64,000 nt of DNA from Cytophagales bacterium (GTDB lineage Bacteria; Bacteroidota; Bacteroidia; Cytophagales; JAAEPT01). The position numbers and the translations under genes are program-made. The stretch lies in contig CBDCZI010000025.1 in the NCBI GenBank assembly GCA_965224495.1, positions 243,495 to 307,494 on the forward strand, read 5' to 3'. Shown here piece after piece: positions 2,712-53,041 of this stretch; position 1 is the stretch's first letter; every line of letters begins with the position of its first letter. The notes beneath the pieces are model-generated. The model searched no databases and had not been told where the DNA came from. It saw only the letters and a list, made by a program, of their open reading frames with translations.

Positions 2712-3900
2712 AATACTTGTTTTATTTCTGTTGCTTGCAACTGTTTCTTTTTCTCAAAAGAAGTCAAAAAAGCAGTTAGAGAAGGAAAAGAAGGAAATCA
2801 AGGCTAAAATTATAGAGGCTGAAAAAATACTTTCAGAAACACAGAGCAAACAACAAGTTTCTGTAGGAGAGTTGACTGCCCTAAAAAACCTGATCACGGT
2901 TAATACAGCGTATTCCAATACCATAAATGAGGAGTTGACGAATATCAAAAAAGATATCGTGAATATCAAACACAAAATTGGTTCTCTGAATACCGAATTA
3001 GATACTTTGCGGTCAAAATATGCGGAGATGTTGTATGCAACGCAAAAAACAGTAGCTGACCAAGAGCAAATAATTTTCTTGTTTTCGTCGGATAATTACA
3101 ACCAGCTTACCTTGCGAATAAAGTACCTCGAAATGATAAGAAAGGCGAGGAAAGCACAGTATGGTAAAATTATTGACACCAAGAATAAACTCATTAAGCA
3201 AGAGTTGGTTTTAGAAATAAAAACACTTGAAAAACAAAAATCTATTGCAGATTTTAAAGTCGAAAAGGTACGTCTGGATAGCCTCAATAACGAACAATGG
3301 GTAGTAGCTGAATTGTTAGCCGAACAAGAGAAAGGCATACGGAAAGATATCAAAAAATTCCATAAACAACAGCAGAAAATCGACCGACTGATAGAGGCTA
3401 TTATTAAGGCAGAAATAGCACGTAAAAAAAGGTTAGAAAAAACACGTGCTTTAGCTGAGCATAAAAAAACACGTATCAACAGTAAAAACTTTGCTTCTAA
3501 TCGAGGGAAACTTTCGTGGCCAGTAGATAAGGGGTTTGTTTCTCGTAAATTTGGGATGCAAGCACACCCAACCATTCCTGGTATTAAGGTAAATAACCCT
3601 GGTATTGGTCTGCAAACCCAAAAGGGAGCGTCTGTAAAAGCGGTGTTTCAAGGGACGGTAATGACGGTGGCAGAAATTCCTGGTTCAGGAAAATTAGTGA
3701 TGCTTTCACACGGAAATTATTATACGGTTTATAGTAAATTGAAAACAGTAACCGTTAAAAAAGGAGATATCGTAGCTTACCGACAAGTAGTCGGCACAGT
3801 AAGTACTTCTCGTAAAGGGGTAACTGAGTTGGGGTTTCAGATTTGGAAAGAGATGAAAAAAGAAAACCCAGAATATTGGTTAAATAAAACTAAAAAATAA
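2692..3900 (+). CDS. EnvC-like coiled-coil protein with degenerate LytM (M23) domain, a probable murein hydrolase activator
   Basis: Signal peptide, then about 250 aa of heptad-rich coiled coil, then a C-terminal LytM fold (LSHGNYYTVYSKL...GDIVAYRQVVGTV). Both metal-ligand motifs are replaced: NPGIGLQ instead of HxGID, and ELGFQIW instead of HLHFE. Confidence 0.75.
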   Translation: MSTKRFKILVLFLLLATVSFSQKKSKKQLEKEKKEIKAKIIEAEKILSETQSKQQVSVGELTALKNLITVNTAYSNTINEELTNIKKDIVNIKHKIGSLNTELDTLRSKYAEMLYATQKTVADQEQIIFLFSSDNYNQLTLRIKYLEMIRKARKAQYGKIIDTKNKLIKQELVLEIKTLEKQKSIADFKVEKVRLDSLNNEQWVVAELLAEQEKGIRKDIKKFHKQQQKIDRLIEAIIKAEIARKKRLEKTRALAEHKKTRINSKNFASNRGKLSWPVDKGFVSRKFGMQAHPTIPGIKVNNPGIGLQTQKGASVKAVFQGTVMTVAEIPGSGKLVMLSHGNYYTVYSKLKTVTVKKGDIVAYRQVVGTVSTSRKGVTELGFQIWKEMKKENPEYWLNKTKK

Positions 3901-3932
3901 CGATTTAAATCAAATTGACCGATGACAAGCAT

Positions 3933-4943
3933 ATGAAATTTCAAGAGAACTACAATTTACAAGCATTGAATACTTTTGGGTTAGCTTGTGTTGCTAAACG
4001 TTTTTTAAGAGTAGAGTCAGTAGATGAATTGCTTGGGTTTCTTGAAAACTACAACAAAGAATCCTTGTTGATTTTAGGTGGAGGAAGTAATCTTTTGTTT
4101 ACTCAAAACTTTGAAGGTACGGTCTTGAAAAATGAAATCAAAGGCATTGAGGTCGTCAAAGAGGATGATGAAAACATTTGGTTAAAAGTAGGGGCTGGAG
4201 AGGTTTGGCACGATTTGGTCCTTCATTGCGTGGCTGAAAATTGGTCGGGGATAGAAAATTTATCACTTATACCAGGAACAGTTGGGGCTTCGCCTATTCA
4301 AAATATTGGAGCGTATGGTGTTGAAGCAAAAGATGTAATACAAACCGTTGAAACCATTAATATAGCGACACAAGTAAAGCGAGTTTTTGAAGCAGGGGAA
4401 TGTCAATTTGGTTATAGAGACAGTGTTTTTAAAAGGGAGTTAAAAGGACAGCTTGTTATTACTTCGGTTGTATTTAAACTTAATAAAAATGCAGATATAA
4501 ATATTTCTTATGGAGCGATACAATTGGTGTTGGACGAAAAAGGGATAATAAAACCTACAATTAAAGATGTTAGTGATACGATTATAAGTATCCGTCAAAG
4601 TAAATTACCCAACCCAAAAGAGATAGGTAACGCAGGGAGCTTTTTTAAAAACCCTGTAATCTCAATGGAACTATATAACCAGCTTAAGATCTCTCACCCG
4701 AAAATACCAGGTTATCCGATTGATGAAAAAACGATAAAAATTCCTGCTGGATGGTTGATAGAACAAGCAGGATGGAAAGGGAAAGTTATCGGAGAGATAG
4801 GTGTACACAAAAACCAAGCGTTGGTATTGGTTAATTATGGAAACGGCTCAGGTAAAGAACTCAAAAAGTTAGCGTTTGAAATAAAAGACGACGTTTTCAG
4901 TAAATTTAACGTAGAGATAGTACCAGAGGTAAATATTCTCTAA
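3933..4943 (+). CDS. murB: UDP-N-acetylenolpyruvoylglucosamine reductase
   Basis: FAD-binding PCMH-type N-terminus (LILGGGSNLLF) and the MurB C-terminal motif (GNAGSFFKNP...AGWLIEQAGWKG). The track ORF starts at TTG 3915; the first ATG is 3933. Confidence 0.9.
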   Translation: MKFQENYNLQALNTFGLACVAKRFLRVESVDELLGFLENYNKESLLILGGGSNLLFTQNFEGTVLKNEIKGIEVVKEDDENIWLKVGAGEVWHDLVLHCVAENWSGIENLSLIPGTVGASPIQNIGAYGVEAKDVIQTVETINIATQVKRVFEAGECQFGYRDSVFKRELKGQLVITSVVFKLNKNADINISYGAIQLVLDEKGIIKPTIKDVSDTIISIRQSKLPNPKEIGNAGSFFKNPVISMELYNQLKISHPKIPGYPIDEKTIKIPAGWLIEQAGWKGKVIGEIGVHKNQALVLVNYGNGSGKELKKLAFEIKDDVFSKFNVEIVPEVNIL

Positions 4944-5949: not shown

Positions 5950-8712
5950 ATGGACAAATATTCTTACATAGCTAATGCTCACGGTAATTATATCGAGGAG
6001 TTATATGCAGATTATCAGAAAGACCCAAGCGCTGTTGACGAGAGTTGGCAAAAGTTTTTTGAAGGATTTGAATTTCAAGAAACGCAGTTTGGAGGAAATG
6101 GAGCTACGTCTTCGCCTGTTTCGGCGAACGATAAAGAAGTGAGCGTTTACCGTTTGATTCGTGCGTACCGTTCTAGAGGGCATTTGCGTTCGACGACAAA
6201 CCCTGTTCGCCAGAGAAAAGACCGTAACCCAGGGTTAGACTTGGAGGATTATAACTTGACTTCGGCAGATTTAGATTCGGTTTTTAATGTAGGAACTGAA
6301 ATTGGAATTGGTGCGGCGACGTTGAGAGATATTATTGCTGGATTGAAAAAAATCTACGAGGGGAATATCGGGTTTGAGTACATGTATATCAGACACCGTG
6401 ACCGTCAGGAGTGGTTTCGTCAACGTATTGAGAAAAAATCGTTGAACTACAAGCCAAAGCCTGATAATGTCAAAAGAATATTATCAAAATTGAATGAGGC
6501 AGTTGTTTTTGAAAACTTCTTGCACACAAAATATATTGGACAAAAACGTTTTTCTCTTGAGGGAGGGGAAACGACTATTCCTGCTTTAGATGCCTTGATT
6601 CAAAAAGGAGCTGAAGTTGGTGTAGAAGAATTTGTTATTGGAATGGCACACCGTGGTCGTTTAAATATTCTTTGTAATATCATGGGTAAAACCTATGAGC
6701 AAATATTTAACGAATTTGAAGGTGCTGCACCAGACTCTACAATGGGAGATGGTGATGTGAAATACCACATGGGCTTTTCATCAGTTCAAAAAACAACTTC
6801 TGGAAAAGAAGTGATGCTGAAATTGATGCCCAACCCTTCGCACCTTGAAGCGGTAAACCCTGTGGTTGAAGGTTACGCTCGTTCTAAAATAGAGCGTTTG
6901 TATAACAATGACGCAACCAAAGTTTGTCCGATATTAATACACGGTGATGCAGCAGTTGCTGGTCAAGGTATTGTTTATGAGGTGACTCAAATGCAGAAAT
7001 TATCGGGTTACAAAACAGGTGGTACGATTCACTTTGTTATTAACAACCAGGTTGGTTTCACGACTGATTTTGAAGATGCTCGTTCTTCTATTTACTGTAC
7101 AGATGTTGCAAAAGTAATTGACGCACCAGTTTTTCACGTGAATGGAGATGATCCAGAAGCGGTTGTTTTCTGTATGAAATTGGCGATGGAATACCGTCAG
7201 AAATTTGAGCGTGATGTCTTTATCGATATGGTTTGTTACCGTCGTCATGGACACAATGAAGCTGATGAACCAAAGTTTACTCAGCCTACTTTATATAACG
7301 TTATTTCTAAACACAGTAACCCTCGTGAGATTTACAGTAAAATGTTGATTGACCGTGGAGATATTCAAGCTGACTTGGCAAAGCAAATGGACAAAGAGTT
7401 CCGTGCATTGTTACAAGACCGCTTGAATATGGTGAAACAGAAAACCTTAGCTTATAAGTTTCAAGACACTGAAAAAGAGTGGAAAACTTTAACTAAAGCT
7501 GTCCCTGCTGATTTTGAAAATTCTCCTGACACGTCTATTCCTAAATCGGCTATTGACAAAGTAGGCAAAGCATTAACTACTTTGCCTGATGGTTTTAAAC
7601 CAATTAAGCAAATTGACAGGTTATTCAAAACAAGGAGAACACAATTTGAAGACACACGTGTCTTTGATTGGGCAGCTGCCGAGTTAATGGCTTATGGTTC
7701 TTTAATGTTGGAAGGACACAAAGTACGTTTGTCTGGTCAAGATGTACAACGTGGTACATTCTCTCATCGTCACGCAGTGATAAAAGATGCAGAAACTAAC
7801 CAAGGTTACAATAGTTTAAATGCCTTAGAGACAGAAATTAAATTTGATGTTTTTAACTCCTTCTTATCAGAATACGGAGTATTAGGTTTTGAATACGGGT
7901 ATGCAATGGCTGACCCTAATGTATTGACTATTTGGGAAGCTCAATTTGGAGATTTTGCCAATGGTGCACAAACGATGATTGACCAATTTATTGCTTCTGG
8001 CGAAACAAAATGGAGAAGAATGAATGGTTTGGTGATGCAATTGCCTCACGGTCAAGAAGGACAAGGGCCTGAACATTCGTCTGCTCGTTTAGAGCGTTTC
8101 TTGAAAGGTTGTGCTGATTACAATAATGTAGTGATTAACCCTACAACACCTGCCAATCAATTTCACGCATTGAGAAGACAATTGAAATGGAACTTTAGAA
8201 AGCCATTGATTATTATGTCTCCAAAATCATTGTTACGTCACCCAGCAGTGGTTTCTCCTGAAGTAGATTTTACAAAAGGAAAATTCCAAGAGGTTATTGA
8301 TGATGCTACAGTAAAAGCGAAAGACGTAAAACGTATCCTTTTCTGTTCTGGAAAAGTGTATTACGATTTGGCTGAAGAGCAAGCAAAAGGAAAACGTAAA
8401 GATGTTGCTATTGTTCGTTTAGAGCAGTTGTATCCTTTCCCATATACTAAAATTGATGAAGTATTAGAAAAATACTCAAATCATACAGAAATTGCTTGGG
8501 TACAAGATGAGCCTTATAACGCTGGTGCTTGGGGATTCATTTTAAGAGCACTTTACGATCATCATATTAATGTAATGGATGTGAAAGTGATTGCAAGAGA
8601 CGAATCATCTTCTCCTGCGGTTGGTTACATGAAAACTTTCAAGGCAATTCAACAAGAATTGGTAGAAGAAGCTTTTGGTAAATTCGAAAAGAAAAAAAGA
8701 GTAAAAAAATAA
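5950..8712 (+). CDS. sucA: 2-oxoglutarate dehydrogenase E1 component
   Basis: 920 aa. ThDP-binding region (GDAAVAGQGIVYE...NNQVGFTT), the HRHGHNEADEP motif, and the transketolase-like C-terminal half. Confidence 0.95.
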   Translation: MDKYSYIANAHGNYIEELYADYQKDPSAVDESWQKFFEGFEFQETQFGGNGATSSPVSANDKEVSVYRLIRAYRSRGHLRSTTNPVRQRKDRNPGLDLEDYNLTSADLDSVFNVGTEIGIGAATLRDIIAGLKKIYEGNIGFEYMYIRHRDRQEWFRQRIEKKSLNYKPKPDNVKRILSKLNEAVVFENFLHTKYIGQKRFSLEGGETTIPALDALIQKGAEVGVEEFVIGMAHRGRLNILCNIMGKTYEQIFNEFEGAAPDSTMGDGDVKYHMGFSSVQKTTSGKEVMLKLMPNPSHLEAVNPVVEGYARSKIERLYNNDATKVCPILIHGDAAVAGQGIVYEVTQMQKLSGYKTGGTIHFVINNQVGFTTDFEDARSSIYCTDVAKVIDAPVFHVNGDDPEAVVFCMKLAMEYRQKFERDVFIDMVCYRRHGHNEADEPKFTQPTLYNVISKHSNPREIYSKMLIDRGDIQADLAKQMDKEFRALLQDRLNMVKQKTLAYKFQDTEKEWKTLTKAVPADFENSPDTSIPKSAIDKVGKALTTLPDGFKPIKQIDRLFKTRRTQFEDTRVFDWAAAELMAYGSLMLEGHKVRLSGQDVQRGTFSHRHAVIKDAETNQGYNSLNALETEIKFDVFNSFLSEYGVLGFEYGYAMADPNVLTIWEAQFGDFANGAQTMIDQFIASGETKWRRMNGLVMQLPHGQEGQGPEHSSARLERFLKGCADYNNVVINPTTPANQFHALRRQLKWNFRKPLIIMSPKSLLRHPAVVSPEVDFTKGKFQEVIDDATVKAKDVKRILFCSGKVYYDLAEEQAKGKRKDVAIVRLEQLYPFPYTKIDEVLEKYSNHTEIAWVQDEPYNAGAWGFILRALYDHHINVMDVKVIARDESSSPAVGYMKTFKAIQQELVEEAFGKFEKKKRVKK

Positions 8713-12371: not shown

Positions 12372-12400
12372 AAAAGCCTCACATTTCTGTGAAGCTTTTG
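12372..12400 (-). terminator. Terminator downstream of tRNA-Val
   Basis: On the minus strand: AAGCTTCAC-AGAAAT-GTGAGGCTT followed by TTTTTTT. Confidence 0.65.
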
Positions 12401-12475
12401 TGGGCCCTGTAGGATTCGAACCTACGACCCCTTGCTTGTAAGGCAAATGCTCTAAACCAACTGAGCTAAGGGCCC
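12401..12475 (-). tRNA. tRNA-Val (anticodon TAC)
   Basis: The reverse complement reads GGGCCCTTAGCTCAGTTGGTTTAGAGCATTTGCCTTACAAGCAAGGGGTCGTAGGTTCGAATCCTACAGGGCCCA. It has a 7-bp acceptor stem, a GTTCGAATC T-loop and anticodon loop CTTACAA. CCA is not encoded. Confidence 0.9.
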
Positions 12476-16962: not shown

Positions 16963-16998
16963 GAAACGTCTGTGAGTCTATCTTACAGACGTTTTTTT
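16963..16998 (+). terminator. Rho-independent terminator after rluD
   Basis: GAAACGTCTGT...ACAGACGTTT followed by a T-tract. Confidence 0.8.
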
Positions 16999-17016
16999 AT
17001 GTCGAAAATATAGAAG

Positions 17017-17179
17017 TTGGAGCATCCCCTCTGTGATGAAATGATTTTTCGGTGTAGGTTAGTAAAAGAAGCGATAGAAATGAAAATAACCGATAAAAAT
17101 AACGGAGGGTCGGGCTTACGGCTATATCTTTTTAGGGCAGAAAAAGCCCTAAAAAGGATACCGCCTTTATCCCTATGCC
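17017..17179 (+). repeat. Dispersed structured intergenic element, copy A (candidate ncRNA or MITE-like repeat)
   Basis: Shares blocks TTGGAGCATCCCC / GGGTCGGGCTT / ATCTTT..AAAGGAT hairpin / ATCCCTATGCC with copies at 25131-25368(-), 37655-37826(-), 45648-45803(+) and 52881-53041(+). Confidence 0.8.
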
Positions 17180-17371
17180 AAAAGAATACAGTGTGCATTG
17201 TGTTGAGTGCCTAATTTTGTTTGTCGTCTAAGTGTTTCGTGCTATCCAAAACGAGCGAGGGCGATAGTCGAATCCAATAAACAGAACATATTACCCTACC
17301 AAATTCTTTTCTTTTGACTAATAGCACAAAAAAGATACGTCTAAACCATCTATAATAGAAATCCCACGAAC

Positions 17372-25130: not shown

Positions 25131-25368
25131 GTGGCTTAGGGATTGACGAGAAAATCCTTTTGCTTCTCTATTCTTCTTTAGTTTTGGAGAAGGGGAATAA
25201 GTGATGTAATGACCAAGTAGAAGTGTTCTTCACGGCAAAAGATTGCAACAAAAAGCCCGCCCCTTTGTGACTAACAAGTTGTAGTTTTCTGTTGTAGGAG
25301 GTGCTTTCTTGAGGTGTCTATGTGTCGTGATAAGAAAGGGGAAGCCCCAAATCAGTTGTAATAGACAG
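25131..25368 (-). repeat. Dispersed structured element, copy E (expanded hairpin)
   Basis: The minus-sense sequence reads TTTGGGGCTTCCCCTTT...AAAGGGGCGGGCTTT...ATCTTTTGC-(about 90 nt)-GCAAAAGGAT...CAATCCCTAAGCC. Confidence 0.7.
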
Positions 25369-25490: not shown

Positions 25491-28400
25491 ATGAATAAGT
25501 ATAAATTAATATTGGCAGGAATTCTATTTTTTGTAATAGGTGGGTCAGCTACTTTTGGGCAAAGTTGTTCAGACGCAACACCTGTTCAGGCAGTGTTTAA
25601 TGGTGACTTTGAAAAGGGTTATTTGACCTCCGCTTCTTCACAGTATTCGGATGGAGCTGCTCGTGGTTTTAAATCAGATTTATTACCTGTCACAGATTTT
25701 ACCGGTGCAAACTGTGTTTATGGTTTTGGTGGGAAATATGGTATAGCTAAAAATTTAGGAGCTACGGGTGCTTGTGGTGCCGATTTCCCTTATATTGGAG
25801 CGGGTTACCCAGGAGCGATGGTTTTTGAAGATCATACACCAACTGAAGGAGGTGATGGGTTTGCTTTACTTGTCGATTTTATAGCGGCGGCGAATAGTTC
25901 TTCTGTATATACGGGAGGATTACCTGTGGCGTGGTTGCAAGAAGTGACAATATTCCCTAGTGAAACTTATTATTTTTCGGCTTGGTTTGGGAATTATACA
26001 ACGACACCAGGTACACCTGAATTGTATTTTGTCGTTACGCCTATTGATGCAGCAAATAATTTGGTGATAGCTGAACGTACGGTTGTAGGTACAGCTCAAC
26101 CCACAGGTGTAATGCAGTGGCAACAGTTTTCTGGTGAATGGAACCCTACAGGTGTTTATACTAAAGCTCAAATTTCGATAGAAGTAGATTTTACTTTGAC
26201 AGCACCAGCAAGTGGAGCGGATTTTGCGTTTGATGATATTTCTTTTAAAAATGGTTGTGATGACTTATTAGCAGGTGGAGATTTTGATCCTGATTTAGGA
26301 ACTGATTTTTCTTTGTGTAACACAGGGGGGACTTCTACTTTGGATTTTGGAGGAGCATCAAATGCTTTCCAACAAATTAGATGGTATGAGGTAACAGGAA
26401 CGGGAACAGATAATTTGATAGCGGCAGCGAATGATACGAAAACATTGCCGGTTTCTATTAGCGGTACGAACTCGACAGGTAAATACCGTGTTTGTATTCA
26501 AGAAGCAGGTAAATGTGCAAGAAATAGTATAGTAGAAGTAAAAGATGATTTGGCAGCATTGTCTATTGCCGATATTGAACTGTGTACAAACCCAACGGAA
26601 ACGGTGGATTGTACAGTCGATTTTGTTTCACCAATCAATTCTATTACTTGGAAAAAGGATGGTACAACAGAAGCAACAGATGTAAGAACATTGACAATTT
26701 CTTCGCCAGGTAATTATTCCGTTGATATTGTAGGAGACGGAAATTGTGATGCAAGTGAGACATTTACAGTAACTTCTTTGATTCCTATTGCTGATGAAGA
26801 TCCGTTTAGTCTTTGTGCGGGTAAAACAATGGATTTGACGGTTACAGACCCAACAGCAGGAGGTAATATAGATTGGTACACAACAGCGACAGGGGGCGTG
26901 CCTGTATTAACGAGTGCAACTTTGTTGTCTTATTCAGCAGGGACATTGCCTTTTACTTATTATGTAGAGAATGCAGCGCAGGATAATTATACAGCAGGTT
27001 ATGCAACTACAGGACCAACTTTTTCAAATAGTGATCCGCAAAGACGTGTTGACTTTGTCTCAGATATTCCATTGGTAATTAATTCAGTACAAATAAAACC
27101 GACAGTGTCTTCGGGTATTTGTTGGTCACCTGGTGGAACACAAAATTATACGATTGGCTTGTATTTAGGAACTGGAGCGGGAGCAACAGCAACAGGGCAA
27201 ACAGTAACGCAAGCAATCAATTGTACGGGAGGAATACAAACAGTTGCCTTAGGGTTTAATGTACCCGCAGGTAATTACCAATTAAGACTAGAGAAAGGAG
27301 CGGGGTTAGGTGCAGGGACTGACCAACATTACATACCAACAGCAACGATAGTGTCTCTTCCTGGTGTGATAACAATTAATAAATCTAATGATCCACTTTA
27401 TGGAGGACCATTTTTTAATTGGGATATCGGTGTGCCAAAAGGTTGTGCACGTATTCCTGTAAATGTGATTGAAAAATTAACAGGTTGTTGTCCCGTTTTT
27501 GATGGTGTAGCAATTAATGAAGCAAGTGTGACAACTTGTTCGGTAGGAGGAACAGAAACATTTACAGCAAACAAGGTCGGTGCGAATTTAGCAGTTAATT
27601 TATATGAATTTCGATGGCTAAATGGAGCTACTGAAGTGAAAACATGGACAGCAGGGAGTGCTGGGCTATCTTTAACAAATGCAGAACTTATAGCAGGTGG
27701 TGCAGGGACTTATACTGTAGAATTGAGAATAATAGGAAATGTAACCTGTACGGCAGTTTCGTCAGGTGTAACCTTAACAGTCAACACGACCCCAACCACT
27801 CCAGTCCTAGCAGGAACACAAGCTTACTGTGCGGGAGACAATATTTCTCTTAATGTAACAGCAGGAACAGTAACAACAGGAGCAACTTACGCGTGGGAAA
27901 AAGATGTGGCGGCAATAGCGGGAACAACAGCAACTTACACAAAAGCAAGTTCAGTAACAACAGACGCGGGTAGCTATACAGTAACAGCAACAAAAGATGG
28001 TTGTTCGAGTGCGGAGAGTGCGAGTTATGCATTAACGGTAAATGAAGTACCAGCCAAACCAACGATAACAGCTAACCCAACAGCCACTTCTATTTGTACA
28101 GGAGACGCGGTAACGTTAACAAGTGCATCGGTAACAACGGGAGTGACTTATGTATGGACAAAAGGAACAGCAAGTGGAACAAACGATAAGGATATCGTAA
28201 TAGCATCTGCGGTAACGGGAGACGGCGGAACTTATACCACAACGGCTACAAAGACAGAAAACGGAAAAGCATGTATATCACCAGCAAGTGATAACTTTGT
28301 TTTAACAGTCAACACGACCCCAGTTACCCCAATACTAGCAGGAACACAAGCTTACTGTGCGGGAGAGAGTTTATCAATAAACGTAACGCCAGGCACAGCA

Positions 28401-31400
28401 ACAACAGGAGCAACTTACGCGTGGAAAAAAGATGCGGCAGCAATAGCGGGAACAACAGCAACTTACACAAAAGCAAGTTCAGTAACAACAGACGCGGGTA
28501 GCTATACAGTAACAGCAACAAATGCAGGTTGTTCGAGTGCGGAGAGTGCGGGTTATGCGGTAACGGTAGATGAGGCAGTAACTATTGCTGCTATTACACC
28601 AGCAGCAGTATGTTTTCCAGGAACAGTAGATATTACAACAGGAGCAGTAACTCCAGGGACAGCAACAGTAACTTACCATGTAGGAGCAGGAGGAACAGGA
28701 GCAATTCAGCCGACAGCCACAGCAGTAACAGGCACAGCAGTTTACTCAGTAAAAGCAGTGAATGGACAATGTAACACAACTTCAGACGTTAACGTAACAG
28801 TAACCCCCTTACCATTAGCCCCAACAGTAGCACCCTTATCTTACTGTAAAGACGCAACAGGAGCGGCAGTCTTAACAGCAACAGGAGCAGGATTAACCTG
28901 GTACACGGCAGCGACAAGCGGAACGGCAACAGCACCAACCCCATCAACAGCAATCGTAACGACATTCGATTATTATGTTAGTCAGACAGTCACAAGTTGT
29001 GAAGGACCAAGAGCAAACTTACAGGTAACGATAAACGCTTTACCAACGGTAAGCGCGACAAGTGATGATGCGGATAATAAGATTTGTTTAGGAGACAATG
29101 TAACCTTAACAGGAGGCGGAGCAGACACTTATGTTTGGGATAACTCAGTAACAGATAGGACAGCGTTTACGCCAACGGGAACGGTGAACTACACGGTAAC
29201 AGGAACAAACACAGCAACAACTTGTACAAACACAGCAAGTGTTCAAGTAGAAGTAAATGCTTTACCAACAGTAACGGCAACAGTAACAGGAAGCCCCGCA
29301 TGTTTAGGAGCAAATGTAACACTGACAGGAGGTGGAGCAAGTACATATACTTGGGATAACGGAGTAGCTAACGCAACAGCCTTTGCGACCACAGCAGTAG
29401 GAACAACAACCTACGAGGTCGAAGGAACAGACGCAAACGGATGTAAAAAGAAAGCCACGGTAGATGTGGTAGTAAACGCTTTACCAACAGCAGTATTAAC
29501 AGGAACAGCAAGTATCTGTAACAAAGCAGGAGTAACAACAGACTTAAACATTGCATTAACAGGAGCGCAACCTTGGGAAGTAGTTTACAACAACCCGATA
29601 ACAGGAAACCAAACGATTAACCCAACAAGTTCACCCGCTACAGTAGCAGTAAATAACGCAGGAGATTACACTTTAGTCAGTGTGAAAGATGCCAATAACT
29701 GTACAGCCACAAGTGCAACAGGCACAGCAACGATAGACTATTTAGACGAAGTAATTGCAACCTACGAAACAAAATGTTCAGGAGATGAAGTAGGAACTTT
29801 AGTATTAGGAGGGACAGATTTTCAAATTGTATTGACGGTAACACAAGGGGATTTGTCATCAATTACGGCTACAGAAACTACGGTTCACGGAGTGACATTC
29901 ACACGAGAAGGAACAACGAATCAGTGGGTTTCAGGAGCGATAGATGAATCAAACACAGTAGTAGCAGATATCAAAGATGGTAATGATTGTAATACACTTA
30001 CCCGTTCAGGTATGAATACAAGATGTTCATGTCCAGCAACAGGAACAACGGTAATAGGGACTGGTGGATTACTCACTGAAACGATTTGTAACGATGCGGG
30101 AGTAGAATCAACGGTAACGGTAACTTACAATGGAGGATCAAGTGATTACAGAATTACACTAGACCAACCAACGAGTGCGGATGTAATAAAAGACAATGAA
30201 ACAGGAACAACGACTTTTGCTGTAAGTGAAGCAGGAACCTATAACGTAGAAATTTATAGCAACGGTAACGCCTGTCCTGTCAATGGAGGAAGTGTAACAC
30301 TTGCTCATCACACGACGCCCGTAGCACAATTAACAGCAACAAGTGCAACAACAGTTTGTGCAGGAGACAATGTGACTTTGGAAGTGAAATTAACCGCAGG
30401 AGATGCACCATTTACCTTTAACTTAGATAACACGACACCAGTAAGTAGTGTAGCAAAAACAGGAGCAACAACAACCTTTACAGAAGCTATAAGTACAACA
30501 GGAGATTACAGTATCACCAATGTAAAAGACAACAACGGTTGTATAGGAACAGCAAGTGGAGCGGTAACGATTGCAAACCATGCGAACACAGCAGCAACAG
30601 CAATAACTAAATGTGACACCCCATTAGGCGGAGTAACCTTAGCAGCAGATGAATTTCAAATCGTAGTAACAGCAACAGCAGGAACATTTACAAGTGACCC
30701 AATTACAGAAACTACAGCTCACGGTGTGACTTTCTCACGAGTAGGGTTAACAGACGTTTGGTATTCAGGAGCAATAAACGAGGCAAACGCAGTAGATTTA
30801 GACTTTGCAGATGACAACGGGTGTAACACCGTAGATTTAGATGGCTTACAAAAAAGATGCTCATGTCCAGCAGAGATAGATGATTTTACTATTGACAAGA
30901 CAGAGATTTGTGCAAGTCCCTCACAAACAGCAACGCTAACAGTAACTTATTCAGGAGGAGATGCAACAGATACGTACACGCTTTCATTAACAGGAGCAGA
31001 AACACAGAGTAATGCAGGAGCAGCAGGAAGTACAAGCACCACCTTTACAGTAAGTACACCAGGAACTTATAATGTAGCAATAACAAACATTACGCAAGGG
31101 AACTGTGTGATTAACGGAACAACACAAAAGGTTTTAGCTCATTACACTACACCAAAAGCAGAGATAACAGGAGATGCAAGTATTTGTGATGATGCACCAA
31201 CAGTAACGACACCATTGACAATTACCTTAACAGATGGAGTAGCACCATTTACTTTAGACGTATCCAACGGAGTTGGAGCAATTACAGGAGCAACCACCGC
31301 ACACACAGAAAACGTTTCAGCAAGTGGAAGTTATACGTTAAGTAATTTAGTAGATAACAACGGGTGTGAAGGAACCGTAAGTGGAAGTGCAACAATCACT

Positions 31401-34400
31401 CACTTAGCAAAAGTAGCAGCAACGCCAACAACACGTTGTGATGATGAAAGCCCATTAGGAAGCATCAGCTTAACTGACTCAGAATACCAAATTGTCGTAA
31501 CAGCAACAGCTGGAGATATGGCTAGTTTGGTAATAACAGGGGCAACGTTCCAAGAAACAGCAGCAGGTTCGGGTATCTGGTATAGTGGAGCAATAGCCGA
31601 AACAGTAACTTCAGCCGTTCATGTAACGGATGTTAATGATTGTGAGGGAGGAATAGACCTTACAGGGATAACAAGAACATGTTCTTGCCAAGCCAAAGGA
31701 GTAACTACCCTGACAACAGGAACAATTTGTGCAGAAGGAAATACAACAATAGAGGTAGTAACCAGTGGGCTAACAGGGAACTATAACGTAACCTTGACCC
31801 AACCAGATGCAACGACACAAGTCGCTTCAAGTAAGCCTACAGGAACAGAAGTGTTTACAGTAAGCCAAGCAGGAGATTATACCGTAGTGGTACAAGATGC
31901 AACAGATGGTTGTGTTGCAAATGGAGGAACGGTAAGACTTGCTCATTACCCCGTACCAACAGCAACAATAGCAGGAGATGCAAGTATTTGTGCAGCAGGA
32001 ACAGTGTCAACAAGTACAGGATTAGCTGTTACATTAACCGCAGGGACAGCACCTTTTGCTATTGATTTATTAGGAGGAACAGCAACGGAAAACTTAACCA
32101 ACCTAACAAGTCCTCATACCCAAGGCGTGAGTACAGCAGGTGTTTATACGTTGACTAATTTAGTAGATGCTAACGGATGCCAAGGAACAATTGCACCAAC
32201 AGAGAAAGCAACAATCACCAACTTTGAGAAGGTGATTGCTTCAGGAAGTGCGGTATGTAATAGCACACCTTCATTAGTATTAGGAGGCGTTACATTATCA
32301 CCTACACAATACCAAGTAGTAGTAGAAGTAACGCAAGGAGATTTGGCTTCAACGGTAGTCACTAAATTAGTGGGGGGAGTGTCATTGACAAGACTTCCTT
32401 TAACAAACAAGTGGTACAGTGGAGCGATAGACGAAACGACAGCCACAGATGTCCACGTAACAGACGGTAACAATTGTGAAGGAGGAATAGATATTACAGG
32501 ACTACAAAACCAATGTTCTTGTCCTATTGCAGCAACAGCTACTTTATTACCAGGGAGTATTTGTGATGATGGAACTTCAACAGCGACCTTAACAGTAAAT
32601 GTAACCAGTAGTAATACGACCGATATGACAGATTACACGATAGCGGTAACAGGAGCAGAAACGGTTGGTTCGACAGAAACGCCAGATGCTTCAGGAGCAG
32701 TGGTAAATAAAACTTACAATGTAAATACAAACGGAGCTTATGCCATTAAGGTAACAAGTAACGGACAAAATGGAGCTTGTGTTGTATCAGCAGGAGGGCA
32801 AAACTTAACGGTAAATGCTTTACCAACAGCAAGTATCACAACAACAGGTACAGCGTTGGAATACTGTCAAGGAGAAACACCAATAACCTTAACGGCAACA
32901 CAAGTGATTGGAGCAACAAGTTACGAATGGTTCAAAGGTGGAGTTACACAAGGAACAACCTTAACCAACAGCAAAACAAATGCAACAGCAGATGCAGCAT
33001 GGACGGTGAAAGTAACCGACGCAAATGGTTGTGATCAAACGTCAAATCCAGTAGCGGTAATAGAAAATGCTTTACCAATAGCAAGTATAACGACAACAGG
33101 AACAGCATTGGCGTACTGTAAAGACGGAGCAGGAGTTGTATTAAGAGCGACAAACGTACCAAATGCAACTACCTACGAATGGTTCAAAGAAACAACTTCA
33201 GTAACAATAGGAGCAGGAGATACAAAGACAGGAGCGTTAGCAGGAAGTTGGACAGTAAAAGTAATTGATGATAACACTTGTACAGCAACTTCAACGGCAG
33301 TAAGCGTTATTGAAAACCCATTACCAACACCAAGTATTACGACAAGTGGAACGGACTTAGCATACTGTAAAAATGCAACAGGAGTAACACTAGCAGCAAC
33401 AGGCGGAGTAGATTACGCATGGATAAAAGACAACGGAACACCAACAGCTTACTCGACAACAGCCACAACAAGTGATGCGAAGTTTGGTAACTGGCAAGTA
33501 AAAGTAAAAGACGCTAAAGGGTGTGAAGCAACTTCATTAGCAGTAACCGTAACAGAAAACACCCTACCAACGGCTACCTTGACAAGCGCAACAAACCCTG
33601 TGATTTATTGTGCAGGAACAAGCGCACCAATAATTACGGTGGCGATTACAGGAAATGGACCATTTACTTATGACTATACAGGAGGGGCAAACGGAACAGG
33701 GCAAAGTACAGGAACAATAACAACAAGTAACACGGACAACGCAGCGACCACTTACCAACTCACGAAGGTAACAGATGCTAACAACTGTGAAGGGACAAGC
33801 TTTGGAGCAAGTGTTGTGGTGACACAAGAAGAAGTGCCAGGCGTACCAACACTGAGATCGGACGCAGAAACAACGGTATGTGAAGCAACTGTATTTAATA
33901 TTACAGCAACTTCGGTAGCAGTAGGAACGCCAACGATTATTTGGGAACAAGGAGGGACAGGAACAGAAGCGAGCCCATCGATTGTAGTAGGTAATACGGC
34001 AGGAAGCGTAACGATTTACCAAGCCAAAGCAAAAATTGGAAACTGTCCATCGGAAAGTTCTTTACCCTTAGTAGTTACAGTAAAAGAAAGTGCAACAGTA
34101 AGTTTAACGGTAAATAAAACAACAGTTTGTGAGGAAGAAAAGGTGGTATTTACAGCCTCATCAACCCACGCGGACCCAGGGGTAACTTACGACTGGTATT
34201 TGAATATAGAGGTCGCAGGGATAAACACAGAGATAAAGACAGTGACAACGATAAACCCAACTTATGAAGTGAAATTAACAGACAGTGACGTTTTATACAG
34301 TGTGAAGATAGCCAACAACAGTTCTTGTGTAGGAGCAGAGGTAAGTTCTAATTTACAAGCGGTAGCAGTAACGAAGTTACCAAAACCAACATTGAATAGC

Positions 34401-35162
34401 TTAAGTGAGAGCTTATGTGGTACAGATGGAGGTTTTGACTTGGTGGCAAGGGATGAAAACGGAGTGATTTATACGAGTGGAATAGATTGGCGCGATGGAA
34501 ATGACGATAAATTATTAGAAACAAGTGGGAGCTACCATGTAACTAAAACAGGGACTTACGCAGTGTATGTCACTAAAAACGGATGTCGTTCAAAAATACA
34601 CTCAGGAAGAACGGTAGCACAAGTGGTTGTTCAGGAATTGAGTTTAGACTTTAGTCCATCAGAGACCCAAGACATCGAAGAAGATGAAGAGGTGGTGTTA
34701 GAGGCAATTGTAGGAGGAGGAATAGGCGTATTAGAATACGCTTGGACTCGAACAGAGACAGGGAATGTGACCGGTAGTTCATCAAGTTATGTTTACCCAG
34801 CAAGCAAGACAGAAAACGTATCGGTAGTGGTAACTGATACGCAGACCAACTGTACGGTAAGTAGTGGGGTGACGGAGATAAATGTATTGAAATCATTTAA
34901 AGTACCCAATGCGTTTACACCAAACGGAGATGGATTTAATGATACGTGGAACATTGAAGGGTTAGAAACTTATAGAAACTCGGTGATGAATGTTTATAAC
35001 CGTTGGGGACAATTGGTTTACAGTAACCACGGGTCATACACAGAGGCATGGGACGGAAGAAGAAATGGTAAAGACTTACCTATCGGAACGTACTATTATG
35101 TGATTACCCTAAACCAAGACGGCAAAGAAAACGTGAGTGGTGATGTAACTATCGTGAGGTAA
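25491..35162 (+). CDS. Giant repeat-rich cell-surface protein with T9SS type-B C-terminal sorting domain (SprB-like adhesin class)
   Basis: 3223 aa with a signal peptide. Dozens of Thr/Ala/Gly-rich Ig-like modules carry conserved Cys pairs. The last about 88 aa match the gliding-motility-associated CTD ([15 protein letters not shown]...YNRWGQLVY...WDGR...[10 protein letters not shown]). Confidence 0.9.
29476..32815 (+). repeat. Four tandem macro-repeats of about 275 aa (822-834 nt) inside the giant gene
   Basis: A CSC(P/Q) landmark recurs at 30024, 30858, 31680 and 32514. Each unit has three sub-domains (..ASIC..PF.., [27 protein letters not shown], and ..TVTY.GG..Y..L...G.Y.V....C..NGG...LAH). 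Confidence 0.85.
34896..35159 (+). other. T9SS type-B C-terminal sorting domain of the giant protein
   Basis: [72 protein letters not shown]. Confidence 0.9.
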
Positions 35163-37557: not shown

Positions 37558-37654
37558 GATATACGAACTCTAGTATATTACCCTCGTTGTAAACGAGTGC
37601 TAGAAGGTTTACACACAGACGATAGAAAGTCAATTAAGAACTAATAAACGCGTG

Positions 37655-37826
37655 AGGGATAGAGACGGCATCCTTTTTGGGCTTTTTCTGCCCGAAAAGA
37701 TACAGTCGAAAGCCCGACCCGAGGGGTGCTATGAAATAGTGTTTTTATGGTGCTGAACTCTTTGCTATGAAAAGCAGTAAAACAAAACAAAAGAGGGGTA
37801 CGTCCAAATCTACACGTTATTTAAAA
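37655..37826 (-). repeat. Dispersed structured element, copy D (divergent)
   Basis: The minus-sense sequence reads TTTGGACGTACCCCTC...GGGTCGGGCTTTCGAC..ATCTTTTCGGGC-AGAAAAA-GCCCAAAAAGGAT..CTCTATCCCTCACGC. The long-range helix is not preserved. Confidence 0.6.
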
Positions 37827-45647: not shown

Positions 45648-45803
45648 TTGGAGCATCCCCTTAGTAATGAAATGTTTTCTCGGATTTTCATAGCTATAAA
45701 TTCGATAGAAAGAGAGATAACCGATAAAATCAACAAAGGGGACGGGCTTTCACCTATATCTTTGTTCGTTCCTCACAAAGGATGTCGGCTCTATCCCTAT
45801 GCC
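45648..45803 (+). repeat. Dispersed structured element, copy B
   Basis: TTGGAGCATCCCCTT...AAGGGGACGGGCTTT...ATCTTTGT-TCGTTCCTC-ACAAAGGAT...CTATCCCTATGCC. Confidence 0.8.
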
Positions 45804-51876: not shown

Positions 51877-52827
51877 TTACAGACCTCCTTTTTTCTGTAA
51901 ATCAGCGAAATAAGCGATAGTTTTTTCTAAACCTTGCTCCAATTGAATCGTTGGTTGCCAGTCCAATTCTTTTTTTGCCAACTGAATATCAGGCTGACGT
52001 TGTTTTGGGTCATCTTGAGGCATATCCAAATGAATAATTTTTGATTTAGACCCCACACCAGCAATCACTTTTTCTGCCAATTCGAGCATCGTAAACTCAT
52101 TCGGATTTCCAATATTACAAGGACCAGTAAAGCCATCACGCGAATTCATCAAACGCATCATCCCTTCAATATTATCGTCCACATAGCAAAAACTACGAGT
52201 CTGTAAACCATCGCCATACATCGTGATATCTTTCCCCTCCAACGCCTGAACGATGAAATTAGAAACCACACGCCCATCACGAGGATTCATTTTCGGACCA
52301 TACGTATTGAAAATACGCATCACCTTAATATCCACATTATTTTGGTTGTGGTAGTCAAAAAACAAGGTTTCCGCACATCGTTTTCCCTCATCATAACACG
52401 AGCGTATCCCTATCGGATTGACGTGTCCCCAATAACTTTCAGGTTGCGGATGCACCAAGGGGTCGCCATAAACCTCACTTGTACTCGCTTGTAAAACCTT
52501 CGCACCGACACGTTTAGCCAATCCCAGCATATTTATCGCCCCCATAACCGACGTTTTTGTCGTTTTTATCGGGTTATGTTGGTAATGAATCGGCGAAGCA
52601 GGACAAGCTAAATTATAAATTTGGTCAACTTCCGCAAAAAATGGAGCAATCACATCGTGACGAATCAATTCAAAATAAGGATTATCGAGTAAATGCACGA
52701 CATTTTGTTTATTTCCAGTAAAGAAATTATCAAGGCAAATCACCTCATTTCCTTCCTCTAACAAGCGTTCACACAAATGCGAACCCAAAAAACCAGCACC
52801 ACCAGTAACTAAAACCCTATTTTTCAT
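51877..52827 (-). CDS. UDP-glucuronate decarboxylase (UDP-xylose synthase), SDR family
   Basis: GGAGFLGSH Rossmann motif and the YDEGKR catalytic Tyr-x3-Lys. Strong similarity to UXS enzymes. Confidence 0.9.
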
Positions 52828-52880: not shown

Positions 52881-53041
52881 TTGGAGCATCCCCCTTTTCG
52901 ATGAATTATTTTTCACTATTTCATAGCCCAAATTACCGATAGAAAGAGAGATAGTCGATAAAAAGGAAGAAGGGGTCGGGCTTTATCGTTCTCAATCTTT
53001 GTTCGTTCCTCACAAAGGATTTCCACTTCAATCCCTAAGCC
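52881..53041 (+). repeat. Dispersed structured element, copy C
   Basis: TTGGAGCATCCCCCTTTTC...GAAGAAGGGGTCGGGCTTT...ATCTTTGT-TCGTTCCTC-ACAAAGGAT...CAATCCCTAAGCC. Confidence 0.8.

Follow-up and report, generated by a model that had tools for sequence, protein, structure and literature searches.

Flavo-1 elements in the window

The window, the whole 64,000-nt stretch of DNA analysed here, contains five copies of one repeated, structured, intergenic element (copies A to E, Table 1). Among its genes are those for a protein with a CHU_C type IX secretion domain and for a GH9 cellulase (both by Pfam), a content that suggests a Cytophaga-like host, hence a member of the Bacteroidota. Copy B is sited between convergent EamA and HlyD-like genes, and copy E in the divergent region separating ilvA from the gene for a 3223-aa CHU_C protein. 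Copy C is co-directional with both of its flanking genes and has a TATGTTTG box 49 nt upstream; the gene at 51877-52827, which is UDP-sugar decarboxylase-like, therefore probably carries this copy in its 5' leader.

Table 1. Flavo-1 units in the window and the parts of copy A; bit scores are for Rfam RF01705 and for model R1, a covariance model built from relatives.
Feature	Position	Strand	RF01705 (bits)	R1 (bits)	Remarks
Copy A, full-length Flavo-1 unit, 163 nt (P0, P1, P2, CCAA tail)	17017-17179	-	45.4	42.6	RF01705 at 17104-17183(-)
Copy A, P0 3' strand ATGCT and CCAA tail	17017-17025	-			Reverse complement is part of the '5' block' of the first-pass annotation
Copy A, P2 arm, 84 nt	17026-17109	-			Base CCCTC/GAGGG, the 'long-range helix' of the first-pass annotation
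Copy A, P1 hairpin, Rfam-covered part	17112-17173	-			Tip TTTTTAGGGC/GCCCTAAAAA; Rfam consensus alignment
Copy A, P0 5' strand GGCAT	17175-17179	-			Pairs with 17021-17025; read from sequence
Copy E, 218 nt	25133-25350	+	36.0	37.9	P0 GGCTT/AAGCC; 69-nt insert at P1 tip
Copy D, 158 nt	37650-37807	+	49.0	55.2	P0 GCGTG/TACGT, two G-U pairs on plus strand
Copy B, 156 nt	45648-45803	-	29.4	33.1	P1 tip loop GAGGAACGA; RF01705 E = 0.038
Copy C, 161 nt	52881-53041	-	39.7	34.8	Flanking genes by Pfam

Each of the five elements is a full-length Flavo-1 unit (Rfam RF01705). The Flavo-1 family was described by Weinberg et al. 2010 (PMC2864571) as a structured repeat of Bacteroidota, and it has since been listed with the most abundant families of bacterial 'small RNA' (PMC9029176). 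RF01705 was placed by cmscan on all five copies, each aligned to positions 1-76 of the 76-nt model and each on the strand opposite to that chosen in the first-pass annotation. Copies A and D score above the curated gathering score of 42 bits, and copies C, E and B below it (E-values 5e-5 to 0.04). With an Rfam hit on every copy, the earlier statement that the element matched no RNA family fails, and the element is known rather than novel. The window copies share with the database family the P1 hairpin, in which alignment to the Rfam consensus finds both symmetric 3x3 internal loops and the conserved GAU...AUCC and GAU...GCC arms, as well as a Bacteroidota host with many copies per genome. They differ from the Rfam model in their divergence, which leaves three of the five below the gathering score, and in a P2 arm of 81-86 nt.

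The count of five given in the first-pass annotation was reproduced: model R1, run with or without filters, locates five copies in the window and no more, its next-best match having E = 0.57. Sequence blocks of the element are over-represented in the window. Block TTGGAGCATCCCC, allowing up to two mismatches, has seven matches against 0.63 expected (three of the seven sit within ORFs and are due to chance), block GGGNCGGGCTT has six against 0.91 and block ATCCCTANGCC has five against 1.38. The density of five copies per 64 kb had been taken to imply a very abundant family, and published annotation bears this out, with 128 Flavo-1 copies in the 2.86-Mb genome of F. psychrophilum.

Structure of the full unit

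Read on the Rfam strand, the Flavo-1 unit folds into a three-way junction, in which YTT is followed by the 5-bp closing stem P0, a single A, P1, GA, P2, the 3' strand of P0 and CCAA(A). The foot of the unit reads YTT-GCGTK-A-GGG (type 1) or TTTTTAGC-CCnG (type 2), and type 2 units end in AGCT-CCTWAAA. In the core of P1, two copies of GATTGNAGYGRAAAKCC pair into a duplex with two-fold symmetry and two G.A/A.G loops, below a variable tip; among 53 relatives both arms share one 17-mer consensus, with GATTGNAGYGRAAAKCC on both strands. Arm symmetry shows the same core in copy A, with two GNA/GNA loops. Such a symmetric and conserved core points to a putative dimeric protein partner. P2 is the variable arm, ranging among relatives from 3-bp hairpins or C-GNA-G mini-hairpins, through perfect 20-bp palindromes, to more than 80 nt, as in the window genome (81-86 nt). 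Its shortest loops are often C-GNA-G triloops, and both P2 and the P1 tips often form perfect 20-bp palindromes (z = -6 to -9). The tail is kept family-wide, with CCAA in 58 of 71 copies and then A in 63 of the 71, and the same unit ends were found at 120 loci from Flavobacteriales, Sphingobacteriales, Chitinophagales and others. Flavo-1 occurs in these three orders and in Cytophagales, and is rare in Bacteroidales.

Coverage in both the Rfam model and the published alignment (PMC2864571) is limited to P1 with its 5' flank. The alignment ends at AGCCCGACC; the '5' block' and the 'long-range helix' of the first-pass annotation fall outside it and outside the model, and neither includes P2, the P0 3' strand or the CCAA tail. 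The window copies are about twice as long as the Rfam model, and the real unit is some 20-100 nt longer than that model. The 5' block and the long-range helix are real features, additional to the database model, and the closing stem P0, a third helix that had been overlooked, links both terminal blocks.

RNAalifold returns the three-way junction, and R1 has full-length matches in nearly every locus. Covariation across the aligned relatives is strong: paired cells amount to 97.8%, against 80.4% after shuffling, and the covariation score of 0.466 (0.148 shuffled) was reached by none of 500 shuffles, while slid partners gave 0.03-0.09. All five P0 pairs covary among 104 relatives. In the window, P0 is GGCAT/ATGCT in A and B, GCGTG/TACGT in D and GGCTT/AAGCC in E. 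Both helices described earlier as changing in a compensatory way were confirmed: what was called the 'long-range helix' forms the base of the P2 arm (CCCTC/GAGGG in A, CCCCTT/AAGGGG in B, CCCCTT/AAGGGGG in C), and the 'hairpin' is the tip of P1. The conserved bulged G noted at the ATCTTT/AAAGGAT base corresponds to a CU-versus-A asymmetry in the Rfam model. Copy E carries an insert of 69 nt at the tip of P1. The element had been read on the wrong strand: the Rfam strand is favoured by the ratio of G-U to A-C pairs, which is 29:10 in all and 23:3 within P1, and by GNA/GNA loops rich in purines. Single-sequence folding of window copies is thermodynamically unremarkable (z = -2.7, +0.2, +1.6 and -1.6), and copy D is the only one with the three-way junction as its minimum-energy fold. 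Structural support for the window copies is comparative, not energetic.

Genomic context and inheritance

As the first-pass annotation had proposed, Flavo-1 is bound to no single cis-regulatory context. All four orientation classes are occupied, with 38 copies antisense to and 24 in the sense of co-directional neighbours, 23 in convergent and 17 in divergent regions, and 22 of the 38 co-directional antisense copies lie within 60 nt of a stop codon. The neighbouring genes (tal, SOD, S16, SerB, RelA, CysK and others) have no common functional theme. Replication-strand bias was absent by 8-kb skew, a noisy proxy: the sense strand is the G-rich strand at 63 loci and the C-rich strand at 56. Skew in the window is mostly positive, yet its copies run in the order -, +, +, -, -, so that both orientations occur on one replichore.

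The homology of copies A, B and C ends exactly at P0 and at the CCAA tail. These three copies share a lineage-specific P2 insert at 66-72% identity, and a P2 palindrome of one type is common to several loci of one MAG. A search for 3-8 nt direct repeats over 70 boundary combinations in 71 copies found no excess, in keeping with the earlier remark that target duplications were not apparent; their absence fits single-strand (HUH-type) copying. The earlier observation that no transposase is adjacent also held for the 10 element-flanking window genes checked. No transposase or RAYT gene adjoins any of about 150 copies, the genes between paired copies at two loci (L085 and L004) are ordinary, and about 1 Mb of loci showed no parent element with a transposase.

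Many copies occupy orthologous sites in different species, where the core is conserved while flanks and hairpin tips diverge, and core identity reaches about 95% between classes (L020 versus L090). The copies are old and positionally stable, not fast-moving. For the window copies, the only contigs available for an empty-site comparison were of the same species, two of which carry a copy B 100% identical to that of the window; no record was found for the RluD protein, and the other window proteins are singletons at 90% identity. A metagenome scan for the window subfamily returned one chance match, in a GC-rich ORF.

Copies on phages and plasmids

The Flavo-1 family is not confined to Bacteroidota but occurs also on Firmicute and Moraxella plasmids, of conjugative or phage-like type, and in ssDNA phages. 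In two diverged inoviruses the element is intergenic, on the packaged strand, beside a conserved GC-rich hairpin block; IMG taxa 2582581003 and 2517572240 carry an inovirus prophage of this kind. In a microvirus (L122) it is on the non-packaged strand, which is never single-stranded. F-type Moraxella plasmids have two copies on the template strand of a gene block that includes an antirestriction gene; in pMOV1 both are on the template strand upstream of gene blocks, with the antirestriction gene in the region, and oriT and the transferred strand of this plasmid are placed from gene orientation only. Copies on Paraclostridium plasmids score above the Rfam threshold, have compensated P0 and P2 helices, and lie within a long conserved non-coding region. 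On four IMG/VR contigs an ArdC-N-like gene follows immediately downstream of the element, which is on the template strand; a 570-aa protein beside four viral copies has no annotation in Pfam, NCBIfam or PHROGs. Among 50,697 isolated phage genomes none matches Flavo-1. The Paraclostridium and M. catarrhalis plasmid relatives examined all carry the element, and none has an empty site.

Transcription of Flavo-1

In a strand-specific array of F. psychrophilum, 8 of the 12 Flavo-1 features sampled fall into a single profile cluster (B546), with log2 levels of 6-8 for exponentially growing broth cultures and of 11-14 in late stationary phase or on agar. The same cluster contains all five sampled tRNAs, and the opposite-strand Flavo-1 segments are flat. 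The start of an independent transcript, Rfp7, lies 27 nt upstream of a copy. The authors of the transcriptome study nevertheless found many Flavo-1 copies outside transcribed regions. The array data indicate a pool of sense-strand RNA with tRNA-like behaviour, which leaves room for an RNA function; the signal may also reflect cross-hybridisation among the 128 copies or greater stability of the fold of one strand.

A canonical Bacteroidetes promoter, GTTGTAATTTTGCA, precedes some copies by 3-10 nt, and these copies make up the 5' end of an mRNA: the tal set (L034, L044 and L118) together with L045, L078 and L101. As to a promoter of its own, fewer than one-fifth of 65 copies had an exact TAnnTTTG box within 60 nt upstream, and a relaxed motif was barely enriched (44 versus 35, 30 and 22 in controls). 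Sequence 5' of the closing stem is T-rich and that 3' of it is A-rich, so that no U-tract follows the structure on either strand; an intrinsic terminator was rejected for lack of a U-tract after the hairpin in either orientation. A tRNA was rejected on anatomy, as was an attC site. ARAGORN predicts only a tRNA-Val at 12400-12475 in the window and no tRNA at the element copies. The stem and the CCA end (within CCAA in 58 of 71 copies) are the only features that recall a tRNA.

Nature of the element

Our preferred reading of Flavo-1, at somewhat less than an even chance, is a REP-like repeat that works as a single strand of DNA in folded form. The element would be non-autonomous, its active form being one folded DNA strand read by a putative conserved, probably dimeric protein through the symmetric P1 core. 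Exact units would be copied rarely and without target duplication, and would otherwise persist through long vertical inheritance. Where transcripts contain the sense strand by chance, they would be unusually stable by-products, and neighbouring genes would not be regulated. High copy number, mixed orientations, exact unit ends and the lack of target duplication count for this reading; perfect palindromes and C-GNA-G triloops give it a DNA flavour, and the presence on inoviruses and plasmids puts the element on replicons with a single-stranded phase. Persistence at orthologous sites with a conserved core has likewise been published for REPINs. REP and REPIN sequences with their RAYT (TnpA-REP) enzymes are also high-copy, extragenic and structured, occur in both orientations and often near gene ends, and consist of exact units without target duplication that persist vertically and form lineage-specific subfamilies. 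Flavo-1 differs from them in lacking a GT[AG]G tetranucleotide at its 5' foot, in having no repeat-flanked RAYT (Y1 HUH) gene at the loci examined, in forming a three-way junction of some 100 nt where theirs is a hairpin of 20-40 nt, and in a core conserved across the whole phylum and beyond. The last point weighs against a REP-like repeat, as the roughly 95% core identity between classes exceeds that of REP families. So does the absence of a partner enzyme beside about 150 copies. A partner from Bacteroidetes RAYT subclass 2.6 was rejected, because the REPs listed for it in the published table are different repeats (GCTAG plus a GC hairpin, without the Flavo-1 core AGCCCGAC). Transposons of the IS200/IS605 type insert into the lagging-strand template; Flavo-1 has no such bias (63 versus 56), and since known single-strand transposons are biased in this respect, the missing link to GC skew also counts against the REP-like reading, as do the microvirus copy on a strand that is never single-stranded, the lack of an empty site in the related plasmids examined and the tRNA-like RNA pool of the published array. 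A second explanation we consider possible though less probable: the sense-strand RNA would itself be functional, as a protein-binding structural domain in 5' leaders, intercistronic spacers or short independent transcripts, and would survive as a stable small RNA that titrates or recruits a putative conserved dimeric RNA-binding protein. Strong covariation, the G-U asymmetry and tandem G.A loops form a signature of structured RNA, variable-length peripheral hairpins surround an invariant core, and the core is kept at orthologous sites while the flanks drift. Copies that form mRNA 5' ends after GTTGTAATTTTGCA, the B546 profile common to sense-strand signal and tRNAs, and Rfp7 point the same way. 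An RNA function is harder to reconcile with an orientation that is random relative to flanking genes, with a slight antisense excess (38 versus 24), with the lack of a conserved promoter and of a terminator, and with the many copies that the transcriptome authors place outside transcribed regions. The array signal may stem from cross-hybridisation or one-strand fold stability, and more than 100 copies per genome is far above any known regulatory RNA family.

The phage and plasmid copies suggest another role for a folded strand, namely a signal on incoming or displaced ssDNA that is recognised by the host as a priming site for the complementary strand or as an ssDNA promoter, copies of which chromosomes would have co-opted or accumulated. 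We regard this as unlikely, and we give a similarly low probability to its broadest form, a universal ssDNA signal with a three-way-junction fold and a symmetric core, read by a conserved replication or repair protein and used by filamentous phages and conjugative plasmids of three phyla. Frpo/ssi and the minus-strand origins of phages Ff and G4 are comparable strand-specific ssDNA folds, and their placement is matched by the packaged strand beside a conserved hairpin block in two diverged inoviruses, apparently by the template strand upstream of gene blocks in the antirestriction region of pMOV1, and by the same strand upstream of the ArdC-N-like gene on four IMG/VR contigs. The long conserved non-coding region of the Paraclostridium plasmids would suit such a signal, and a universal host enzyme would account for cross-phylum core identity. 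The P1 duplex, however, as read from its letters, has no -35/-10 mimic of the Frpo/ssi kind, and neither sigma-70 nor Bacteroidetes promoter boxes occur in the stem; there is no similarity to the phage G4 complementary-strand origin, where R1 finds no match (its best, 6.7 bits, is elsewhere). Hundreds of chromosomal copies without replication-strand bias, the wrong orientation in the microvirus (non-packaged strand) and the absence from 50,697 isolated phage genomes also speak against it, and the pMOV1 placement depends on an oriT and transferred strand deduced from gene orientation. A stable, tRNA-like RNA with processed ends, spreading in the form of exact copies, is less likely than the universal ssDNA signal. 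A classical cut-and-paste MITE or its decayed relic, moved by a DDE transposase through terminal inverted repeats, is very improbable. Flavo-1 is short, abundant, intergenic and found in both orientations, its ends are mutually inverted (TTTGCGTT...AACGCCCAAA), and like the structured MITEs Correia, ERIC and RUP, which can alter mRNA stability, it is an abundant short intergenic repeat that folds when transcribed. Those elements have clear terminal inverted repeats, target duplications and identifiable parent IS families, none of which was found for Flavo-1: scanning 71 copies at every offset gave no target-site duplication, what is inverted at the ends amounts to the 5 bp of P0 plus TTT/AAA and covaries like a helix, and no transposase-bearing parent was seen in the loci examined. 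Internal helices that covary and are strand-asymmetric would not be needed by terminal repeats alone. Hardly more credible is a cis-acting signal for neighbouring genes, such as a terminator, attenuator, riboswitch or mRNA stabiliser. Copies do often lie a few nucleotides from a stop codon (22 of the 38 co-directional antisense copies within 60 nt) and some form 5' leaders, but the genes beside them have no functional theme in common, the copies are spread over all four orientation classes, divergent promoter regions included, and no U-tract follows the structure in either orientation.

Implications for the Flavo-1 family

A literature search by sequence strings and by repeat and MITE terms found only Flavo-1 itself, which has been given no function since 2010 despite its abundance. 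The Rfam model omits half of the element and scores divergent lineages such as that of the window below threshold, and as a result Flavo-1 copies go unannotated. The automatic sRNA-gene label for these repeats is probably misleading. If the ssDNA-signal reading were true, phages and plasmids would use the element for complementary-strand synthesis or early expression, and it would have been amplified a hundred-fold in Bacteroidota chromosomes. The analysis alters what merits testing: the real unit is a closed three-way junction with a symmetric core, its copies are old and stable, and the family extends beyond the Bacteroidota.

Identity of the repeated elements

A covariance model built from relatives identified exactly five copies of the repeated element in the window, upholding the count in the first-pass annotation. 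The result was the same with speed filters on or off, and the sixth-ranked match had E = 0.57. In the window, block TTGGAGCATCCCC, with up to two mismatches, gave seven matches against 0.63 expected, block GGGNCGGGCTT six against 0.91 and block ATCCCTANGCC five against 1.38; three of the seven matches to TTGGAGCATCCCC fall within ORFs and are unrelated. All five copies were matched by RF01705 (Flavo-1) in a cmscan search of Rfam 15, copies D and A above the gathering score of 42 bits and C, E and B under it (see the table). The elements are members of the Flavo-1 family. The earlier view that they resemble no known RNA family was therefore refuted; a significant Rfam match places them in a family already known. 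The model also lies, in all copies, on the strand opposite to that first read, and coordinates follow the Rfam strand.

Coordinates of Flavo-1 copies, orthologous sites and associated features
Feature	Sequence	Position	Strand	Length	RF01705 score (bits)
Copy A	window	17017-17179	-	163 nt	45.4
Copy B	window	45648-45803	-	156 nt	29.4
Copy C	window	52881-53041	-	161 nt	39.7
Copy D	window	37650-37807	+	158 nt	49.0
Copy E	window	25133-25350	+	218 nt	36.0
tRNA-Val (anticodon TAC)	window	12400-12475	-
Hairpin and T7	window	16963-17000
Ig-like repeat protein	window	25491-35162		3223 aa
GH9 cellulase	window	53075-54826
Typical member, Rfam match	L118	6462-6544
Typical member, full unit	L118	6462-6560
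P2-less type	L101	3476-3560
P2-less type	L104	1857-1935
P2-less type	L012	4403-4500
P2-less type	L061	2189-2311
P2-less type	L040	1139-1240
P2-less type	L064	201-286
Orthologous site, tal	L034, L044, L118
Orthologous site, aldo-keto reductase	L040, L081, L046, L105
Orthologous site, serB	L038, L057
Orthologous site, sod	L009, L112
Orthologous site, S16	L004, L005
Orthologous site, cysK	L098, L030
Orthologous site, HNH-like gene	L020 (Ferruginibacter), L090 (Flavobacterium)
Paraclostridium non-coding region	L137 (also L138, L140)	3300-4800
Moraxella plasmid units	L141 (pMOV1)	3816-3982; 6730-6896
Moraxella plasmid unit	L139	938-1097
Filamentous prophage unit	L121	337-433
Filamentous prophage unit	L127	318-408
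Viral protein gene	L123	2021-3733		570 aa
Viral protein gene	L124	8746-10458		570 aa
Viral protein gene	L128	136-1848		570 aa
Viral protein gene	L129	4384-6102		570 aa
Head-to-head units	L070	1906-2002; 2038-2131	-; +
Unit before (AAAGTCC)n	L048	6585-6689
Unit near GCTAG repeat	L038	5155-5257

Structure of the full-length unit

A pattern scan that took one genome per species returned at least 120 loci; among the matches listed were Flavobacterium, Mariniflexile, Chryseobacterium, Pedobacter, Sphingobacterium, Chitinophagaceae and others. Almost all share a larger unit, tttGCGTKAGGGAT..ATCCTTTT[hairpin]AAAAGAT..AGCCCGACCC[variable arm]GGGnMACGCCCAAA, for which RNAalifold predicted a three-way junction from 43 short members. 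Its helices are the closing stem P0 (GCGTK/MACGC), P1 (the Rfam hairpin) and P2 (the variable arm). On a typical member the Rfam match stops within P2, and the published alignment ends at AGCCCGACC. The blocks initially noticed outside the Rfam model were genuine and general, since the same larger unit occurs in relatives; reverse-complemented, the 5' block corresponds to the 3' strands of P2 and P0 plus the CCAA tail.

Among 104 model-aligned members, paired cells amounted to 97.8% (80.4% shuffled) and the covariation score to 0.466, against 0.148 shuffled, with none of 500 shuffles as high, and 0.03-0.09 with slid partners. All five P0 pairs covaried, the variants being GCGTT/AACGC, GCGTG/CACGC, GCATG/CATGC, GCGAT/ATCGC, GGCTT/AAGCC and CGGTT/AACCG; in the window P0 is GGCAT/ATGCT in copies A and B, GCGTG/TACGT in D and GGCTT/AAGCC in E. 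Conservation is limited by YTT at the 5' side and CCAA(A) at the 3' side, and G-U pairs outnumber A-C pairs 29:10 overall and 23:3 within P1. Flavo-1 has a defined fold, a strand asymmetry and exact unit boundaries. Folds of typical members were predicted correctly; long-P2 members carry perfect 20-bp palindromes (z = -6 to -9).

Both P1 arms share the 17-nt consensus GATTGNAGYGRAAA(T/G)CC, so that the core is a two-fold symmetric duplex with GNA opposite GNA twice; its purine-purine loops arise on the Rfam strand only. From this symmetry we infer that the core would be recognised by a dimeric protein. A second architecture lacks P2, TTTTTAGC-CCnGAT..P1..GCnGGA-nnn-AGCT-CCTWAAA, and it is on this type that the Rfam consensus was built. 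Its closing stem is just 3 bp, and its P1 base covaries (CCC/GGG, CCT/AGG, CCA/TGG, CCGG/CCGG).

The window lineage

The P2 arm measures 81-86 nt in all five window copies, a nearly constant length despite sequence divergence: identity is 66-72% among A, B and C, and 52-58%, near background, for D and E. Homology among the copies ends exactly at the unit ends. In minimum-energy folding they do not stand out (z = -2.7 to +1.6), and the junction is the predicted fold of D alone. The 9-mer GCTATGAAA recurs within the P2 arms of B, C and D, twice in D.

Between the pseudouridine synthase gene, which it directly follows, and copy A, 17 nt further on, a hairpin (ACGTCTGT...ACAGACGT) with T7 after it looks like the intrinsic terminator of that gene, which would leave copy A outside the transcript; the consensus scan missed this hairpin on account of its 11-nt loop. 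The protein with many Ig-like repeats ends in a CHU_C type IX secretion signal and, with the GH9 cellulase, suggests a Cytophaga-like cellulolytic organism. Window proteins are singletons at 90% identity in a collection of 15 billion proteins, and tRNA-Val is the sole tRNA.

Distribution of Flavo-1

Many of about 130 sampled copies occupy orthologous sites across species with orientation kept; at the HNH-like gene the elements of the two genera are about 95% identical. Within such sets the junction, P0 stem and P1 core are kept and the flanking DNA is not, and the P1 tip and P2 are exchanged wholesale, still as perfect hairpins. P1 tips fall into a few recurrent types, among them the loop GAGGNACGA, found in copies B and C of the window, and GAGGC-TTTTTCT-GCCTC, to which window copies A and D come close. 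Flavo-1 copies persist by position and form lineage-specific subfamilies.

Beyond Bacteroidetes chromosomes, the element also occurs at full length, P0 and P2 compensated and the CCAAA tail present, on mobile replicons of three phyla. Copies on Paraclostridium bifermentans plasmids reach 49-58 bits with the Rfam model, above threshold; they lie within a conserved non-coding region of about 1.2 kb and were present in each of the three relatives aligned. This region, flanked by amidase and DUF1659 genes, is full of GC-rich motifs; Rfam assigned nothing in it but Flavo-1, and its role could be that of an origin or of a large non-coding RNA. pMOV1, an F-type Moraxella plasmid, has two copies, and for the gene block that includes an antirestriction gene both are on the template strand. 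Units on such conjugative plasmids (Gammaproteobacteria) have a P1 tip insert of about 100 nt and lie between the rep and coupling-protein genes, near the antirestriction gene; the template strand of these genes is the one that carries them.

Two diverged inoviruses carry a full unit in an intergenic region on the packaged strand. These filamentous prophages encode Zot, secretin, rolling-circle Rep and integrase, with a tRNA 3' fragment as att (positions 1-30); about 100 nt from the unit lies a GC-rich hairpin block, strongly conserved and perhaps the origin or packaging signal of the phage. In one microvirus the copy is on the non-packaged strand, its tail overlapping the Rep stop codon. Four IMG/VR contigs have a copy upstream of an ArdC-N-like gene. 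In four viral-database contigs, a distance of 1-4 nt separates the 3' tail of an antisense unit from the end of a gene for a 570-aa protein, which has no match in Pfam, NCBIfam or PHROG; in L123 an ArdC-N-like gene follows. Flavo-1 was absent from the 50,697 isolated phage genomes searched. It is unrelated to the G4 complementary-strand origin.

Genomic context and expression

By crude ORF calls around 112 copies, 38 were co-directional antisense, 24 co-directional sense, 23 convergent and 17 divergent, and 10 overlapped a probably spurious ORF. Where a gene is antisense to the element, its stop codon is often right next to the 3' tail. Element strand showed no link to local GC skew (63 vs 56); in the window one strand is G-rich nearly everywhere, but copies lie in both orientations. 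An exact Bacteroidetes -7 box lies within 60 nt upstream of fewer than one-fifth of copies, and a relaxed motif is barely enriched. In the tal set, L045, L078 and L101 a transcription start is predicted from the -7 box a few nt before P0.

Two units in L070 stand head to head, 36 nt apart, reminiscent of a REPIN dimer. In L048 a tandem repeat, (AAAGTCC)n, starts right at the end of the tail. About 60-90 nt upstream of the unit in L038 is a different repeat, GCTAG with a GC hairpin (CGAGCGAGACGCTCG...), which matches a published REP type of Bacteroidetes RAYT subclass 2.6.

The published description of Flavo-1 lists 239 members and presents the family as a candidate Bacteroidetes small RNA; the supplement devotes one sentence to it and names no function (Weinberg et al., 2010; PMC2864571). 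A transcriptome study counted 128 copies in F. psychrophilum, concluding that many are untranscribed and that, relative to transcribed regions, their orientation is 'indistinctly' sense or antisense. In Table S3 of the strand-specific F. psychrophilum array, eight of 12 sampled Flavo-1 features share one profile (clusters A1747/A1765, within B546), with log2 values that rise from about 6-8 in exponential broth to 11-14 in cells in late stationary phase or grown on agar. This profile is independent of neighbours, even for copies antisense to an mRNA whose own segment is flat. Cluster B546 also contains all five sampled tRNAs. Cross-hybridisation among copies is likely. We read the signal as a pool of sense-strand RNA behaving like a stable small RNA.

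Nature of the element

The reading ranked first, though tentatively, is a REP/REPIN-like DNA repeat. Its main support is that copies are numerous, that promoter and terminator are absent, that the hairpins are palindromes of a DNA type, and that the element is associated with replicons passing through a single-stranded phase. In its active form it would be one folded strand to which a conserved dimeric protein binds. Against it, a partner enzyme was not found, the repeats of known Bacteroidetes RAYTs differ from Flavo-1, and replication-strand bias is lacking; the microvirus orientation and the array signal count the same way. That Flavo-1 is instead an RNA module is possible, with somewhat lower probability; the array shows that the transcript of one strand is stable, from which a function does not follow. 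A single-strand DNA priming or promoter signal appears improbable. A classical MITE is very unlikely, and no target-site duplication was found at any boundary offset scanned; just as doubtful is a cis-regulator of neighbouring genes, among which no common theme was found and to which the copies are independent in orientation.

Relative to the family as known, the closed three-way junction with P0, P2 and tail is new, as are the symmetric core, the positional conservation of copies, the wider range of hosts and replicons, and a divergent lineage whose copies, with P2 arms of 81-86 nt, are under-scored by the Rfam model.
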